A stretch of 12,725 nt of DNA from a virus (lineage: Duplodnaviria; Heunggongvirae; Uroviricota; Caudoviricetes): the IMG/VR virus record IMGVR_UViG_2859827302_000006; one strand, 5' to 3'. Below the pieces are notes generated by a model. The model was not told where the DNA came from. It was given only the letters and a program-made list of their open reading frames with translations, and ran no database searches. A program made the position numbers and the translations under genes. Below, piece by piece: positions 1 through 12,725 of the stretch; positions within the stretch are counted from its first letter, which is position 1, and each line of letters starts with the position of its first letter.

Positions 1-1461
1 ATGAAAAAATTACTGCGTCTTTTTTTCCCGCTCTCGCTGCGGGTACGTTTTCTGTTGGCAACGGCTGCGGTAGTACTGGTGCTTTCGCTTGCCTACGGAA
101 TGGTCGCGCTGATCGGTTATAGCGTCAGTTTCGATAAAACTACGTTTCGGCTGTTACGTGGCGAGAGCAATCTGTTCTATACCCTTGCGAAGTGGGAAAA
201 CAATAAGTTGCATGTCGAGTTACCCGAAAATATCGACAAGCAAAGCCCCACCATGACGCTAATTTATGATGAGAACGGGCAGCTTTTATGGGCGCAACGT
301 GACGTGCCCTGGCTGATGAAGATGATCCAGCCTGACTGGCTGAAATCGAATGGTTTTCATGAAATTGAAGCGGATGTTAACGATACCAGCCTCTTGCTGA
401 GTGGAGATCATTCGATACAGCAACAGTTGCAGGAAGTGCGGGAAGATGATGACGACGCGGAGATGACCCACTCGGTGGCAGTAAACGTCTACCCGGCAAC
501 ATCGCGGATGCCAAAATTAACCATTGTGGTGGTGGATACCATTCCGGTGGAGCTAAAAAGTTCCTATATGGTCTGGAGCTGGTTTATCTATGTGCTCTCA
601 GCCAATCTGCTGTTAGTGATCCCGCTGCTGTGGGTCGCCGCCTGGTGGAGTTTACGCCCCATCGAAGCCCTGGCAAAAGAAGTCCGCGAACTGGAAGAAC
701 ATAACCGCGAATTGCTCAATCCAGCCACAACGCGAGAACTGACCAGTCTGGTACGAAACCTGAACCGATTGTTAAAAAGTGAACGCGAACGTTACGACAA
801 ATACCGTACGACGCTCACCGACCTGACCCATAGTCTGAAAACGCCACTGGCGGTGCTGCAAAGTACGCTGCGTTCTCTGCGTAGTGAAAAGATGAGCGTC
901 AGTGATGCTGAGCCGGTAATGCTGGAGCAAATCAGCCGCATTTCACAGCAAATTGGCTACTACCTGCATCGTGCCAGTATGCGCGGCGGGACATTGCTCA
1001 GCCGCGAGCTGCATCCGGTCGCCCCACTGCTGGACAATCTCACCTCAGCGCTGAACAAAGTGTATCAACGCAAAGGGGTCAATATCTCTCTCGATATTTC
1101 GCCAGAGATCAGCTTTGTCGGTGAGCAGAACGATTTTGTCGAGGTGATGGGCAACGTGCTGGATAATGCCTGTAAATATTGCCTCGAGTTTGTCGAAATT
1201 TCTGCAAGGCAAACCGACGAGCATCTCTATATTGTGGTCGAGGATGATGGCCCCGGTATTCCATTAAGCAAGCGAGAGGTCATTTTCGACCGTGGTCAAC
1301 GGGTTGATACTTTACGCCCTGGGCAAGGTGTAGGGCTGGCGGTAGCCCGCGAAATCACCGAGCAATATGAGGGTAAAATCGTCGCCGGAGAGAGCATGCT
1401 GGGCGGTGCGCGGATGGAGGTGATTTTTGGTCGCCAGCATTCTGCGCCGAAAGATGAATAA
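1..1461 (+). CDS. phoQ: Sensor histidine kinase PhoQ of the PhoP/PhoQ two-component system, full length (486 aa)
   Basis: Translation is recognised as enterobacterial PhoQ: two N-terminal transmembrane segments, periplasmic acidic patch EDDDDAE, HAMP region, H-box [11 protein letters not shown], and ATPase motifs DNACKY, DDGPGI, GQGVGL; ends in TAA at 1459-1461. Confidence 0.96.
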
Positions 1462-1675
1462 ATATGTCCTTTTATCACTATATCAAGACAAACCATTGAT
1501 TTAATTAAATAATCTACACTGAAAAAGTGCCAAAAATCGCAAATTGACTACACCATTAACTACACCGTTCGGTGCACCGTATGAAACAACGTGGAACAAA
1601 TAGACACAAGAAATATACAGGCGGATCATCTTTCCAGGGGGAAGCGCACCAATTCATGAGGGGCGTTAATGTCTA

Positions 1676-1945
1676 TATGGGGATCCCCACCTACCGGAAT
1701 TTTTTTCCGGTTAAACGTTAATCAGGCTGGTGGGCTTTACCTGTTCGGTAGGTGTTATGATTATCGTAATACCTTTCCCCCAATGGGGTAAAAGCATCAA
1801 CCGTAACGAAAGTCGTTATGGTTGCCACCGATACCCCAAATTTGGGTATCACGAGTAAGCCCCAAAATCTGGGTGTTACTCTTACTACCCAAACTACGGG
1901 TAGTTTCCGTAGTTTCATGGTCGAGTTGCAGATCTGCAACTCCCC
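1676..1945. other. Hairpin-dense non-coding region (perfect palindromes and tandem CCCAAA...GGGT stem-loops); candidate structured RNA or protein-binding array
   Basis: Palindromes TGGGGATCCCCA (1678-1689), CCGGAA-T5-TTCCGG (1694-1710), GATACCC-caaattt-GGGTATC (1830-1850), AGTAAG...CTTACT enclosing CCCA/TGGG (1854-1886), TACCC-aaactac-GGGTA (1886-1902), and the perfect 20-bp GAGTTGCAGATCTGCAACTC (1923-1942). The three overlapping ORFs of 60-76 aa here have no ribosome-binding site and do not look coding. Confidence 0.35.
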
Positions 1946-2077
1946 CATTAACCACAGGCGAATTTCCGCCTTCGGTCATTCCTTAATCATCTGCGTAATC
2001 ATAATGATTATTCAGCAAGCGCAATTTTGCGCTTTGCTTTAAGTTCAGCGAGTTACCGCGCCGACTTCCTCAAATTG

Positions 2078-2159
2078 AGGTTTCCGAAAATATCAACGGG
2101 TTAGGCTGGTTTCCCCGATGTTCGCCGCTGGCGAATTTCGAAAATATCAACCAGTTACC
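2078..2159. repeat. Imperfect direct repeats GGTTTCCGAAAATATCAAC / AATTTCGAAAATATCAAC, each next to a GTTACCGC motif
   Basis: Copies at 2078-2097 and 2133-2152; GTTACCGC at 2052-2059 and 2154-2161. The core GTTTCCG resembles the lambda cosB R-element core. Confidence 0.5.
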
Positions 2160-2436
2160 GCCGCAACCGCTCCGGCTTCTTCCAGTGGTACGTTATTTTT
2201 TCTTTCTCCCGATACAGTTCAACGCGGCGATTGTAGGCCAGCATTTCCAGAACGCGGATCCGTATGTCGCGCATATCAACATCATTAAGCTGGATACCAT
2301 CACGGCGCATCACCTCAGCAACAACACGCACATAATTTTCAGCGGTCACGCTGTCCGGCTGCGTGGCCTGTTCGTCATGCTGCTGGCTGATTCCGGCAAC
2401 GCGGCGGATTAATCGCAGTATTTCGGCTTCTGTCAT
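2155..2436 (-). CDS. Hypothetical protein (93 aa), last gene of the island before the non-coding terminus
   Basis: ATG at 2436 preceded by GGGGG 4-5 nt upstream; protein-like composition; the overlapping + strand ORF 2185-2412 looks like antisense noise. No recognisable motif. Confidence 0.55.
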   Translation of the reverse strand: MTEAEILRLIRRVAGISQQHDEQATQPDSVTAENYVRVVAEVMRRDGIQLNDVDMRDIRIRVLEMLAYNRRVELYREKEKITYHWKKPERLRR

Positions 2437-2470: not shown

Positions 2471-2535
2471 GGGTCCTTCCTGGAATTATGGCCCGTTACG
2501 GGGCGGCGACCTCGCGGTTTTTCGCTATTTATGAG
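2471..2535 (+). other. Lambda-type cos site (cos-1), cosN cohesive-end sequence GGGCGGCGACCT at 2501-2512, inverted relative to cos-2
   Basis: CCCGTTACGGGGCGGCGACCTCGCGGTTTTTCGCTATTTATGA matches the phage lambda cosN region and left-end leader with a one-base difference; the flank GGGTCCTTCCTGG resembles the lambda cosQ-side sequence. Confidence 0.75.
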
Positions 2536-2729: not shown

Positions 2730-3170
2730 TTAACTTTGCTGTTCTGTAACGACTGATTGTTCCATGCTGGCACGGCGAACGCTTACGGCATGACGCCACC
2801 CAGCCAGAAAGCCAGCCATTTTATTTCGTGCCTTGCTCACATCTTCCGGTGAATAGCCGTAAATCTGCAAACCTTCATCAAATCGATGTTCTGTTTCTTC
2901 ACTGGAGTACTCGTCACGCTCAGATGAAAGCAGCCTGGCAAACATAATTTTTTCCAGCGCACTGGTTTCTACGTGATATCTGATGGCCTCAAGACGGCTT
3001 TTACCTGAAGACCAAAGCAATGTATGCCCGATGTGATAACCGCCAGACTTTCCGCGATCCGCATTAAGATACGGCATCCCCTGTTTGGTCCATGCGCGAA
3101 TAGTGGTTCTGTTAACCTTGAAATGTTCAGCTATTTCCTGCTGACTTACAAAACAAGCTTTATCAATCAT
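2730..3170 (-). CDS. Terminase small subunit homolog (lambda Nu1-like winged-HTH N-terminus); candidate packaging-redirection protein
   Basis: N-terminus QQEIAEHFKVNRTTIRAWTKQGMPYL parallels lambda Nu1 KKQLADIFGASIRTIQNWQEQGMPVL; ATG at 3170 with AAGGTA ribosome-binding site; cos-2 lies about 70 bp upstream, as in lambda cos-Nu1. At 146 aa it is shorter than Nu1 (181 aa). Confidence 0.85.
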   Translation of the reverse strand: MIDKACFVSQQEIAEHFKVNRTTIRAWTKQGMPYLNADRGKSGGYHIGHTLLWSSGKSRLEAIRYHVETSALEKIMFARLLSSERDEYSSEETEHRFDEGLQIYGYSPEDVSKARNKMAGFLAGWRHAVSVRRASMEQSVVTEQQS

Positions 3171-3240: not shown

Positions 3241-3300
3241 TAAATAGCGAAAACCCGCGAGGTCGCCGCCCCGTAACGGGTCCATATGCCGGAAAGGACC
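3241..3300 (-). other. Lambda-type cos site (cos-2) with cosQ-like flank, oriented toward the Nu1-like gene
   Basis: Minus-strand reading GGTCCTTTCCGG...CCCGTTACGGGGCGGCGACCTCGCGGGTTTTCGCTATTTATGA matches lambda cosQ/cosN/left-end sequence; cohesive-end 12-mer is the complement of 3260-3271. Confidence 0.8.
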
Positions 3301-6483: not shown

Positions 6484-6657
6484 TTTTTCAAGCGTCTCAC
6501 TTCGTCGCAGTTGGGATTTTCGGTTTTTCTATGTGTGTGTTTCATAAGTATTTTTTTACCCCTCACTTTTGAGGATGTATACAGGTCGAAAAGTGAGGGA
6601 GAGCGGGCTAATTTTGGCCCTCTTTCTATCCCCCTCGCTTTTGCTCCTCACTTTTAT
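6463..6657. repeat. Iteron array, putative replication origin: seven copies of CTCACTTTT (two variants, one inverted) around an AT-rich spacer
   Basis: Copies at 6465-6475, 6478-6488, 6495-6504 (variant), 6561-6570, 6589-6599 (inverted), 6634-6642 (variant) and 6646-6655; AT-rich stretch 6510-6560; lies directly 3-prime of the Rep ATPase gene. Confidence 0.6.
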
Positions 6658-8054
6658 AGCGGCGCTACATCATCCCCATCGATACGAATAACCCCATCTT
6701 TTTCCAGCTTGTACAGCCAGCGCCGGAAGTTTTTCATTTCATACCCCAGCTTTTTCATGTCATCACGTAACAGCGGGATCGTGCACTTGTCGCCGTTCTG
6801 TGTGCGTGAACGGATGCACCCCCATAGCGCGGTATGGTTTTCCGTCTTGTTCCCTGCCTCCTCGATGCGCTCCAGTTCAACAGGAGGGCGCGGATCATCC
6901 ACCACCACCAGCGACGTGATTAATTCACCGTCAGCGTCGGTAAAAAGCTCCACCACGCGTAAGTCATATGCGGCTTCTTTGAGTTCCTCCGCGTCCTTCA
7001 TTTTGGTGCATGAGATAACCAGCGCTTCGCTTCCTGCGTCCTCCCTGCGTATCCGGTATTCAGCATCCAGCGAAGCACGAAATGCACTGGAACCGCGCGC
7101 GCCTTTCGTCTCATCCTTGCCGGAATGGTGAACCACCAGCACCGTGGCCCCTGTGCGTCGTTTCAGTTCGTCACAACCACGGATAAACGCCCCCATATCA
7201 CGGGAATCATTTTCATCATTCCCACCAAAGCAACGCGCCAGCGTATCCAGAATAATCATGCGTACAGGTTTACCCGTTTCCCGCTCCACCTGACGGGCAG
7301 CGATAACCATTTCATCAACATCAAGCGGGGCAGCCGGAAAGATGGGGCGGTTTACCAGATACAGATTTTTCACCTGCTCATCGTGCACAACCTCCCAGGC
7401 TTTTACACGACGCGGAACACCTATACCGCCTTCACCAACCACATAGAGAACCGCACCATGTGCAACCCTGCGGCCTCCCCACTGGCGACCAGTGGCAACA
7501 TGGCACGCCCACGATCCGGCAAGGAATGATTTATAGGACCCGCTAGCTCCGTATATGCTGCATAGCGATACCGCCGGAATAATCCCCTTAACCACGTAAT
7601 CCAGTTGCGTGTCGTATCCGGTAGATCCAACGCTCATCGGTAGCGTGGTTTTTCGCTGGTGGTTTTTTTCTTCCGCCGGCTCTTTCCCGCGCACCCGTTC
7701 CAGGTATTCGCGCCAGTTCTCCCGCATATGGCTGTGCATCCCTTCGGGGTAATAATTCGCATCAGTTACACCCGCCGCCGCCAGCTTGTGCGCAATGGCA
7801 TTAATATTTGATGGCCTGATGTGGCCTGCCTTGTACAGCCGGACACAATAGCGCCCCTCGTCGATGATTCTCAGGTCTGCCAGTTCATCCAGTTGATCAT
7901 CAGCCAGCACAACGGGAGGCACATTATCGCCAGCCAGTCGCCCGTCCTGTTCCTGCCACTGTTTCGCATGTGCCCAGGCATCACTACCCGCAAAAATAAT
8001 GACTTCGGTCATCTTGTCGTAAGGCTGTTTTTTTAAGTTCGGTGCGCTTTTCAT
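6654..8054 (-). CDS. RepA-like RecA-fold (AAA_25-type) replication ATPase, putative initiator-helicase (466 aa)
   Basis: Walker A GASGSYKS, Walker B-like MIILDTLARCFGG, motif VLVVHHSGKD and a basic C-terminal region; ATG at 8054 with AGGGG ribosome-binding site and ATGA overlap with the upstream gene. The N-terminal 150 aa have no recognisable primase motifs. Confidence 0.85.
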   Translation of the reverse strand: MKSAPNLKKQPYDKMTEVIIFAGSDAWAHAKQWQEQDGRLAGDNVPPVVLADDQLDELADLRIIDEGRYCVRLYKAGHIRPSNINAIAHKLAAAGVTDANYYPEGMHSHMRENWREYLERVRGKEPAEEKNHQRKTTLPMSVGSTGYDTQLDYVVKGIIPAVSLCSIYGASGSYKSFLAGSWACHVATGRQWGGRRVAHGAVLYVVGEGGIGVPRRVKAWEVVHDEQVKNLYLVNRPIFPAAPLDVDEMVIAARQVERETGKPVRMIILDTLARCFGGNDENDSRDMGAFIRGCDELKRRTGATVLVVHHSGKDETKGARGSSAFRASLDAEYRIRREDAGSEALVISCTKMKDAEELKEAAYDLRVVELFTDADGELITSLVVVDDPRPPVELERIEEAGNKTENHTALWGCIRSRTQNGDKCTIPLLRDDMKKLGYEMKNFRRWLYKLEKDGVIRIDGDDVAPL

Positions 8055-11495: not shown

Positions 11496-12725
11496 TTATA
11501 TTTCTCTGGCTATTGGCAATGTGGTTACGTTTTCATGTGTTCCCGCCAGTATCCCTAACCGCTCCGTCCACATATCCAGCGCGTCACGTTTCGCATCCAG
11601 ATAACGGGAATGGTTATAGACTCGTTGCATCCCTGGCATCTGATGACCTGTAAGCTGCTCCACGACGTGAGGATCCACGCCTAAATCGTTCAGCATCGTT
11701 GTAAAGGTGCGCCGGATGTCATGCAGTGACCAGTGAGGGTGTTTTAGCCTCCTGTGCGCTAATCTGCCGTACTGCGACACGCTTGTTTCCTGTTTCACTT
11801 CCCCCAGCAATAAGCCCGTGTGCCTGTTCTGCTCCACCAGCTGCGTGACGAACGGCAGTATTGCTTCCGGTATGGGCCGGAATATTGCCACCTTCGTTTT
11901 GCTGTGTTCTTTCGGCACGGTCCAGAGCATTTCGGTAAAATCCCACTCGCTGATCTCCGATAACCTCAGTTCTACCGTCCGGCATCCGAAAACAATCAGG
12001 AGGCGGATTAGTGCGACGTAGTAAGGGGAAAATATTTTTTTGTCCAGTGCCTGCAATAATTCGCCAAGTTCTTTGGTGCTTAAGACACGCTCGCTTATAT
12101 CCGGTTTTTTCCCAACGTCCGCCACACTCATATCATCAAGAACGTTGCTGATTGCATAGCGCCGCCTCCGGCAGAACTTAAGCGCCTGTTTGCACGTCTG
12201 TAGCAAGAATCCGGCAGTAACAGGCGTTCGCTTTGCCACCTGGTCAAAACAGGCCAGCCAGTGCCGTAGCTCGCATTTATCCAGCGGCATAGCACCAATG
12301 TGCTGTATTACGTGATTATTAAGGCGCTTTTTCAGGGCGGCATAATCCACGCGGTTTTCCTTTACGTAAGACTCAAGCCAGTAGGTAAGCGCATCGCCAA
12401 CCGTTACGGGCTTTAACGCTTTCTGTACGGTGTAATTCATCTCATGACGTGGATTTTTCCCCTCAGCAAGCCAAGCGCGACACTGTGCCGCTTTTTCCCT
12501 GGCAGCTTTCAGACTCAGATCAGGATAATTTCCCAGCTTAATCCGTTCCGGTCGTGCTCCCCTTCCCGTTCCGGCCCTGTAGGTGAAATACCAGGTTAAA
12601 AGGCCGCTGGTTGAATGCCTGACGCTCAGGTTTCCACCGTCATTAAGAAAGGCTGTTTTTTGGGCGGGTGTGCCGTTGATTTTCCTTAGCTGTGTATCAC
12701 TCAGTTTGTTAAGTGCTCTGCGCAT
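11496..12725 (-). CDS. int: Tyrosine site-specific integrase, P4-type (409 aa); start codon at the window edge
   Basis: N-terminal arm-binding region with the LNDGGNLSV motif (compare P4 Int LADGGGLYL); C-terminal catalytic signature with R in GCRTVELR, HxxR in LHDIRRTF and the Tyr region GHQMPGMQRVYNHSRYL. Confidence 0.92.
   Translation of the reverse strand: MRRALNKLSDTQLRKINGTPAQKTAFLNDGGNLSVRHSTSGLLTWYFTYRAGTGRGARPERIKLGNYPDLSLKAAREKAAQCRAWLAEGKNPRHEMNYTVQKALKPVTVGDALTYWLESYVKENRVDYAALKKRLNNHVIQHIGAMPLDKCELRHWLACFDQVAKRTPVTAGFLLQTCKQALKFCRRRRYAISNVLDDMSVADVGKKPDISERVLSTKELGELLQALDKKIFSPYYVALIRLLIVFGCRTVELRLSEISEWDFTEMLWTVPKEHSKTKVAIFRPIPEAILPFVTQLVEQNRHTGLLLGEVKQETSVSQYGRLAHRRLKHPHWSLHDIRRTFTTMLNDLGVDPHVVEQLTGHQMPGMQRVYNHSRYLDAKRDALDMWTERLGILAGTHENVTTLPIAREI

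Follow-up and report, generated by a model that had tools for sequence, protein, structure and literature searches.

The locus examined here raises the question of what a pair of short direct repeats, lying immediately behind the last gene of a phage-inducible chromosomal island (PICI), is for. A sequence-only reading of the same DNA had taken the repeats to be either terminase-binding sites displaced from the cos sites or sites for integrase or another recombination protein near the island end. The repeats are conserved and do lie near the island end, and the general idea of a protein site is supported by our analysis; the terminase and integrase proposals are not. Tentatively, and at somewhat less than an even chance, we favour the reading that the repeats are the IHF-consensus cores of composite palindrome-IHF units, which would form an architectural array at the 3' boundary of the late operon. 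We infer IHF binding from the match to the consensus; the purpose of the array is likewise proposed from the DNA sequence.

The window, that is, the whole 12,725-nt stretch of DNA that was analysed, comprises phoQ followed by a PICI of the EcCICFT073 type (Table 1). Further island genes encode a lambda E-like capsid protein, a D-like decoration protein, an SSB and an AAA_25 primase. The published plan of EcCICFT073 contains two cos sites, Rpp, and the capsid and decoration homologues c1499 and c1500 (PMC6092414, PMC6739421). As the inverted cosN pair around rpp and the E/D-like genes match this plan, the window island is assigned the EcCICFT073 organisation. The 101-nt gap that follows the rpp-proximal cosN (read from 3271 to 3258) fits the description by Murialdo and Feiss of an 'rpp start codon at bp 102' (PMC9026076). 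A near-identical island (99.5% identity) is located between phoQ and roxA in E. coli MEI4BO-21, and in CFT073 EcCICFT073 is inserted at the same phoQ site as the window island. A scan of the window for tRNA and tmRNA genes found none.

Table 1. Features of the window that bear on the terminal repeats, in order of position.
Feature	Position	Strand	Remarks
PhoQ coding region	1-1461		Remaining window is island on the - strand
Separate exact IHF consensus AATCAATGGTTTG	1489-1501	-	Inside attP arm, between doubled ACTACACC and attP centre
Doubled ACTACACC arm-type motif	1547-1554 and 1559-1566		Fits the doubled motif of the integrase clade
Rest of palindrome-rich terminal non-coding region	1570-2018		'Structured terminus' of the sequence-only reading; inverted repeats I1, I3, I4, I8, I19
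Chi site GCTGGTGG	1726-1733	+	Within terminal non-coding region
Unit 0 palindrome GCGCAATTTTGCGC	2019-2032		Read from sequence; ends 10 nt before degenerate core, offset as in intact units
Unit 0 degenerate IHF-like core GTTCAGCGAGTTA	2043-2055	+	11/13 consensus positions, then CCGC; from unit alignment
Unit 1 palindrome CCTCAAATTGAGG	2068-2080		Commonest palindrome ahead of core across related islands
Unit 1 A/T-rich spacer TTTCCGAAAA	2081-2090	+	GTTTCCG spans 2080-2086
Unit 1 core TATCAACGGGTTA (repeat 1)	2091-2103	+	Exact match to WATCAANNNNTTR
Unit 2 palindrome TTCGCCGCTGGCGAA	2121-2135		Read from sequence
Unit 2 spacer TTTCGAAAA	2136-2144	+	Read from sequence
Unit 2 core TATCAACCAGTTA (repeat 2)	2145-2157	+	Exact match to WATCAANNNNTTR; TTA, read on the - strand, is the TAA that ends the 93-aa gene
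93-aa gene, phrog_1561	2155-2436	-	Last gene of the island's late operon; convergent with phoQ
Exact lambda cosN	2501-2514	+	Inverted relative to the other cosN, rpp homologue between
cosB repeats GGTTGTTGT beside + strand cosN	2549-2558, 2609-2618, ~2686-2694	+, inverted, +	Arranged like R3-R2-R1
Rpp homologue, 146-aa HTH protein	2730-3170	-	Matches RppC, PDB 6HLK, E 6e-31
rpp-proximal cosB	3257 to rpp start		88 bp; CGTTTTTCCGT at R3 position
Exact lambda cosN, rpp-proximal	3258-3271	-	101 nt upstream of rpp start
AAA_25 primase gene	6654-8054	-	
Tyrosine integrase	11496-12725		Part of the - strand island

The protein of the 93-aa gene has an AlphaFold model of three helices (pLDDT 72). Foldseek gave no match to PDB or BFVD at E<=0.001, and Pfam gave no domain. 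A homologue search returned 942 matches, and the 120 listed are all from E. coli with at least 88% identity; a scan of genome contigs with the same protein returned one Shigella locus only. The gene stands last in Rpp-type islands, after the cos site, and also in capsid-forming PICIs (L003, L008 and L050), where it directly follows TerL.

A repeat search aligned TTCCGAAAATATCAACGGGTTA (2082-2103) with TTTCGAAAATATCAACCAGTTA (2136-2157), with 19 of 22 bases alike and the exact 13-mer CGAAAATATCAAC common to both. The pair noticed from the letters is therefore real, although its spacing is 54 bp from start to start and not about 56 bp. It is the sole pair of 22-nt windows within 120 nt that reaches 19/22 across the whole 12.7-kb window; in 200 dinucleotide-preserving shuffles, the best score was 18/22 (seen six times) and 19/22 never occurred. 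The array starts right at the stop codon of the 93-aa gene, the last gene of the island. GTTTCCG, taken as the common core, is present in repeat 1 only; repeat 2 reads AATTTCG. The element said to adjoin each repeat, GTTACCGC, does occur twice (2053-2060 and 2154-2161), but the two placements are not equivalent. The downstream copy covers the last bases of repeat 2 and with them the stop of the 93-aa gene (TTA at 2155-2157, TAA on the - strand). The upstream copy lies 26 nt before repeat 1 and, in a three-unit alignment, is accounted for as the tail of a third, degenerate unit at 2019-2055. The repeat list holds a related pair (family D7, 2045-2059 against 2147-2161, 87%).

Overall, the window array consists of two intact, co-oriented units 54 bp apart and a decayed unit 48 bp upstream. 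The core is identical at 13 of 13 positions between the two window copies, while the flanks outside the unit are unrelated. Both cores sit 9-10 nt downstream of short perfect palindromes that differ in sequence. Each repeat would be the sequence-specific half of a putative IHF site, and the proposed repeating unit of about 45-50 bp would comprise a palindrome (5-9 bp arms, free sequence), an A/T-rich spacer of 9-11 nt and the core WATCAA-N4-TTA. Column statistics over 31 units give GTTTCCGAAAA as the consensus of the spacer.

The position of the palindrome relative to the core is fixed across the related islands. A perfect palindrome ends 10-11 nt before the core in 25 of 31 distinct units, compared with 23% at control positions. 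Of 127 palindromes chosen without regard to the core, 20 are followed by a + strand core within 40 nt, and the offset is 9-11 nt in 19 of these; only one palindrome has a core on the opposite side. The palindrome slot is 11-21 nt long and is filled by at least six unrelated sequences. When 24 units are aligned, six of the seven dyad pairs vary on both sides (compensatory changes). Doubly changed cells number 27, as compared to 11 +/- 3 in shuffles (none of 500 reached 27), and the dyad covariation score is 0.42, with slid-partner controls at 0.16 or below. The geometry and the covariation indicate that the unit combines a dyad, a spacer and an IHF core, and that dyad and core are both under constraint. 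We regard as demonstrated the match to the consensus, the build of the unit with its fixed geometry, the conservation and copy-number variation of the unit across island types, and the covariation of the dyads.

The core is the part of the unit that points to IHF. IHF is an accessory factor of site-specific recombination and of lambda cosB. Both window cores fit the IHF consensus WATCAANNNNTTR exactly (WATCAA, 4 bp, TTR), the consensus and its four elements being those of PMC1874591. An IHF site of about 34 bp also has an A/T-rich stretch or A-tract in its 5' half and flexible steps 9 bp apart (PMC1874591). In the units, GAAAA abuts the core, TTT occupies -10 to -8 and the dyad has its A/T centre at -19 to -15; none of the three is placed at -14 to -9 like the A-tract of lambda H', which may count against IHF. 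The window holds five matches to WATCAANNNNTTR against 0.67 expected (0/200 shuffles reached five), with a consensus that carries only about 16 bits. As the unit copies descend from one another, their common match is not independent evidence. Two further observations count against IHF: some internal units keep AGTTACCGC with the WATCAR core decayed (to TCTCAG, TTCAGC or TTCCAA), and the core-to-core spacings of 48, 54, 99 and 113 bp are without helical phasing. Conservation extends beyond the consensus to G at -5, AAA at -4 to -2, C at +6 and G at +9, which could reflect common descent or a different, more specific protein. The copy number varies from one to seven among close relatives, so no fixed higher-order structure is required. 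We know of nothing that would explain why IHF needs an arbitrary-sequence dyad beside its site.

IHF bound to each core would be predicted to bend the DNA sharply, and the bent DNA and the dyads together might form a compact nucleoprotein structure. Such a structure could delimit the heavily transcribed packaging operon at its 3' end and keep it apart from attP and int or, in the integrated state, from phoQ. Its role would be that of an architectural or topological boundary, a role already suggested for RIB/BIME-1 elements of the chromosome. Phage piracy is studied in models that include PICIs such as EcCICFT073, and if IHF does bind the arrays, a host architectural protein would take part in the biology of satellites at a place other than cosB or attP. 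If this is true, the site could affect expression of the late operon, read-through into int after excision, or DNA stability. The best annotation at present would be 'IHF-consensus sites within palindrome-IHF units', and the tempting but wrong annotation 'extra cosB R sites' is removed. The conservation beyond the consensus, the decayed cores that keep AGTTACCGC, the unphased spacing and the variable copy number are the reasons why a relic, an RNA function and another protein are retained below as rivals.

Lack of protein binding and of conservation in related islands had been named in the sequence-only reading as what would refute its proposal; the repeats are kept in EcCICFT073 and at about 20 other non-redundant E. 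coli island ends. Part of 2030-2175 is matched in 1047 of 5426 complete E. coli genomes, the pieces often being split by insertions or deletions. The median is one place per genome (highest four), and every place retrieved is an island end. When IMG/VR was scanned for the exact pattern, 36 loci came up, mostly island ends with the same unit; 14 of the 36 have two exact matches, 54 or 113 bp apart. The fetched genome ends and the IMG/VR loci reduce to 22 non-redundant island ends, including that of the window. Each island end carries one to seven units, in the same orientation at all loci examined. EcCICFT073 has three cores, the last two of which are the identical 54-bp pair of the window.

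The last operon always has the array at its 3' end, whatever that operon encodes. This operon contains Rpp with lambda cos in the window, L001 and CFT073; a 180-aa TerS and the 93-aa gene in L002, L006 and L011; HNH, P27-family TerS, TerL and the 93-aa gene in the capsid-forming islands L003, L004, L008, L009 and L050; and TerS with capsid, without the 93-aa gene, in L005 and L012. The unit-bearing islands are inserted at phoQ, clpS, yejO, the mdtJ/tqsA region and beside a prophage Q gene. These differing packaging modules and insertion sites argue that the array is not tied to the lambda-type terminase or to one integrase. Searching a phage database in distant mode with 1570-2160 gave no match, which makes the region island-specific.

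Individual island ends vary in their surroundings. Two of them, L010 (E. coli 2013C_3653) and L013 (E. coli 2013C-3033), have the antiterminator Q gene of a prophage as the neighbour of their unit-bearing terminus, so that the island is probably embedded in a prophage. All that L013 retains of the 93-aa gene is its final ~35 nt, beside a PemK/MazF toxin gene. In L041 (IMG/VR 2872693482_000001), the phoQ stop region ...gatgaataaatatgtcc is joined directly to the unit gaaagAATCAACGGGTTA, and the terminal region lacks about 500 bp, among them the arm motif and Chi. The window also contains a run of hairpins at 1784-1951 with related A/T-centred dyads (TACCCCAAATTTGGGTA, CCCCAAAATCTGGG, ACCCAAACTACGGGT and GTTGCAGATCTGCAAC); the run is nearly identical in L008, L009, L011 and L016, and none of these dyads is linked to an IHF core.

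We regard it as unlikely, though worth serious consideration, that the array is a functionless relic in which the IHF-like core is simply inherited. The junction between the end of the 93-aa gene and the sequence downstream would have been multiplied by tandem duplication in series, or by unequal crossing-over, while islands frequently exchanged modules. Alternate units end AGTTACCGC(G)CC, also given as GTTACCGC(G)CC, resembling the real gene end ...CGGCGGTAAC, and the - strand TAA triplets of successive units are in frame with the gene stop, 54, 48 and 45 nt apart (2008-2157). These two features suggest that the array grew by duplication of the gene-end junction. Copy number and unit order differ between near-identical islands, and truncated gene remnants such as that of L013 lie beside units, as a relic would lead one to expect. 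Neutral decay, however, would not spare a 13-nt core beside at least six unrelated palindromes at a fixed 9-11 nt. The compensatory changes in the dyad would be unexplained, and the unit orientation is invariant over all loci examined.

An action of the units in RNA appears distinctly unlikely. As stem-loops, they would belong to the 3' UTR of the late operon on the - strand or, on the + strand, to read-through or antisense transcripts; they would serve as stabilisers, processing sites or weak terminators, with the 'core' a single-stranded RNA motif. The 591-nt terminal region folds far better than shuffles on either strand (z about -10), the stems keep their pairing while the sequence varies, and the array sits at the 3' end of an operon. 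Insertion at the phoQ stop displaces the phoQ terminator, and read-through from the host could be stopped by + strand hairpins that have TTTCC or TTTGCTTT behind them. Against this, a scan for intrinsic terminators found none on the + strand in the array and one weak - strand site at the gene end. Stem mismatches of the G.T and A.C types number 19 and 18, so that neither strand is favoured. The two arms usually stay complementary up to 1-3 nt from the dyad centre, closer than an RNA hairpin needs, and no relevant Rfam family was found at the gathering threshold or at E<=5. On the balanced mismatches, the complementarity near the dyad centre, the lack of an Rfam family and the lack of a + strand terminator in the array, we lean towards the dyads acting at the DNA level.

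A protein more specific to the island or its helper could bind GAAAWATCAACNNGTTA, the dyads or both, the likeness to IHF being coincidental; AlpA, a PerC-type regulator and the 93-aa protein would be the candidates. This we consider very doubtful. The conservation at G-5, A-4 to A-2, C+6 and G+9 goes beyond the IHF consensus, and AAC-NN-GTT is itself a small dyad. No candidate co-varies with the array, though, and islands that share the units differ in most of their genes. The 93-aa protein is without a recognisable DNA-binding fold and is missing from capsid-type islands that have units. Dyads of arbitrary sequence are also unlike the targets of a sequence-specific dimer.

Displaced R-elements for a lambda-type TerS or for Rpp-TerS, possibly with IHF as in cosB, were the first proposal of the sequence-only reading, and we now give them hardly any credence. 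Lambda cosB has the order R3-I1-R2 (inverted)-R1, where I1 is an IHF site. The spacer consensus contains GTTTCCG, the core of lambda R3, and the succession of an R-like element and an adjoining IHF site is reminiscent of R3-I1. The rpp-proximal cosB carries an R-like element at the R3 position, and the island depends on the TerS of its helper (PMC6739421). The comparison fails at several points. GTTTCCG occurs twice in the window where 2.06 are expected, and repeat 2 does not have it. Every unit is direct, with no equivalent of the inverted R2. The array lies 344 bp away on the cosQ side of the + strand cosN and 1.1 kb from the rpp-proximal cosN, rather than within about 200 bp of a cosN and between it and the start of terS or rpp, and each cosN has its own adjoining cosB. 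Between the first two GGTTGTTGT repeats of the cosB beside the + strand cosN, a one-mismatch IHF-like core is present on the - strand (~2573-2590).

The same conclusion is reached from the terminases of other islands. The helper of CFT073 is a lambdoid prophage at icd (PMC10111431); its cosB is made of R elements of the CATGTCGG type, arranged R3/R2 (inverted)/R1, and has no GTTTCC. The same units occur in capsid-forming PICIs (cf-PICIs) with P27-family TerS, TerL and HNH and in islands with TerS and capsid, that is, together with unrelated terminases. The cf-PICI preprint does not locate the cos site; gene order places it likely in the gap between HNH and TerS and not in the array.

Arm-type sites of attP for integrase or excisionase, the second of the earlier proposals, are just as improbable, in our estimate barely worth entertaining. 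The array is at an island end, IHF is a classical accessory factor of attP, and one short island end (L012) has a single unit about 170 bp from the att motif. The arm role is, however, already filled. The direct repeats of the island ends are limited to a 75-nt similarity with the doubled ACTACACC, which has a partner adjoining int, as seen in L001. For this integrase clade, an arm-type 'doubled motif' has been described at 81 and 132 bp (PMC10111431); if the crossover is set at the phoQ stop, a placement that we infer, the ACTACACC copies are about 82 and 140 bp away. The spacing of the arm motif would thus put the attP centre at about the phoQ stop, and insertion would replace what followed phoQ, terminator included. 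The array is about 580-690 bp from this centre, outside the span of the arm motifs, and the attP arm contains an IHF consensus of its own (1489-1501, - strand). The att motif that accompanies the units is not always the same (ACTACACC or CGTATAAC), and it lies at 150-800 bp from them. Comparison with the other island end, suggested earlier as a search for att-related repeats, gave no unit at the int-proximal end and the arm motif ACTACACC instead; units are not on both arms within about 250 bp of the crossover, where attP arm sites would be.

Three other candidates were rejected: a replication origin, as the primase gene is more than 4 kb away and a PICI origin is immediately 3' of pri-rep (PMC6092414); an integron-type site, from the likeness of GTTAGGC to GTTRRRY/RYYYAAC, as half of the units read GTTACCG and there is no integron integrase; and a Fur box at about 1994-2014, which has no match within three mismatches.

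The terminal region that holds the IHF-consensus units is also rich in Chi. In 18.5 kb of non-redundant island ends, Chi occurs 29 times on the + strand and 10 times on the - strand, with about 0.28 expected per strand, and the island-end sites (L002-L046) lie in at least four different sequence contexts. The enrichment was revealed by a 7-mer census, which was too noisy to define the motif. A + orientation Chi is recognised by RecBCD moving leftwards from a cos-derived end, and on this basis Chi may protect the island DNA and promote recombination at the terminus. It is rather improbable, yet worth stating, that the units and the co-oriented Chi lying just past them together make up a dedicated 'end module' of enterobacterial PICIs, or else a new family of miniature repeats that amplifies only in satellite termini. 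Such a module could act as a nucleoprotein cap and recombination hotspot, insulating the late operon from attP/int and attenuating RecBCD that enters from the cos-derived DNA end. It might also drive the shuffling of modules, with the same terminus on Rpp-type, capsid-forming and TerS/capsid-type islands. As the terminal region is the one segment common to islands with different packaging strategies, it is a candidate recombination junction for module exchange. In the PICI literature searched, the 500-700 bp terminal non-coding region is not mentioned and no published description of a terminal array was found.

Three known systems resemble the array to different degrees. With the IHF sites H1, H2 and H' of phage attP, it shares the consensus and the location in a terminal non-coding region of an integrative element; it differs in lying outside the attP span, in its variable distance and copy number and in its independence of the type of integrase. 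With lambda cosB, it shares an IHF site and short repeats near the cos of an element packaged by a lambda-type terminase, and GTTTCCG as in R3; it differs in its side of and distance from cosN, in having all its units direct, in a 7-mer present at the frequency of chance and in the presence of separate cosB regions elsewhere.

The closest likeness is to the RIB/RIP elements (BIME-1). According to PMC3333891, citing Boccard and Prentki 1993, these carry a site for IHF in the L linker that joins their two REP palindromes, and they follow transcription units of E. coli at the 3' end; roles in architecture, topological insulation and mRNA 3' ends have been proposed for them. The array and RIB/BIME-1 both have an IHF consensus beside palindromic DNA, both are extragenic at the 3' end of an operon between convergent genes, both vary in copy number between strains, and the roles proposed for RIB/BIME-1 would fit the array. 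RIB/BIME-1 elements contain two inverted REP units (y and z1) and are dispersed in hundreds, whereas the array has one short, variable, non-REP dyad per core, on one side only and at a fixed 9-11 nt, in tandem co-oriented units found only at PICI termini. A search of the window for the REP consensus with up to three mismatches gave no match. From the absence of REP, the single free-sequence dyad per core and the one to four places per genome, we conclude that the array resembles this family but is not a member of it.
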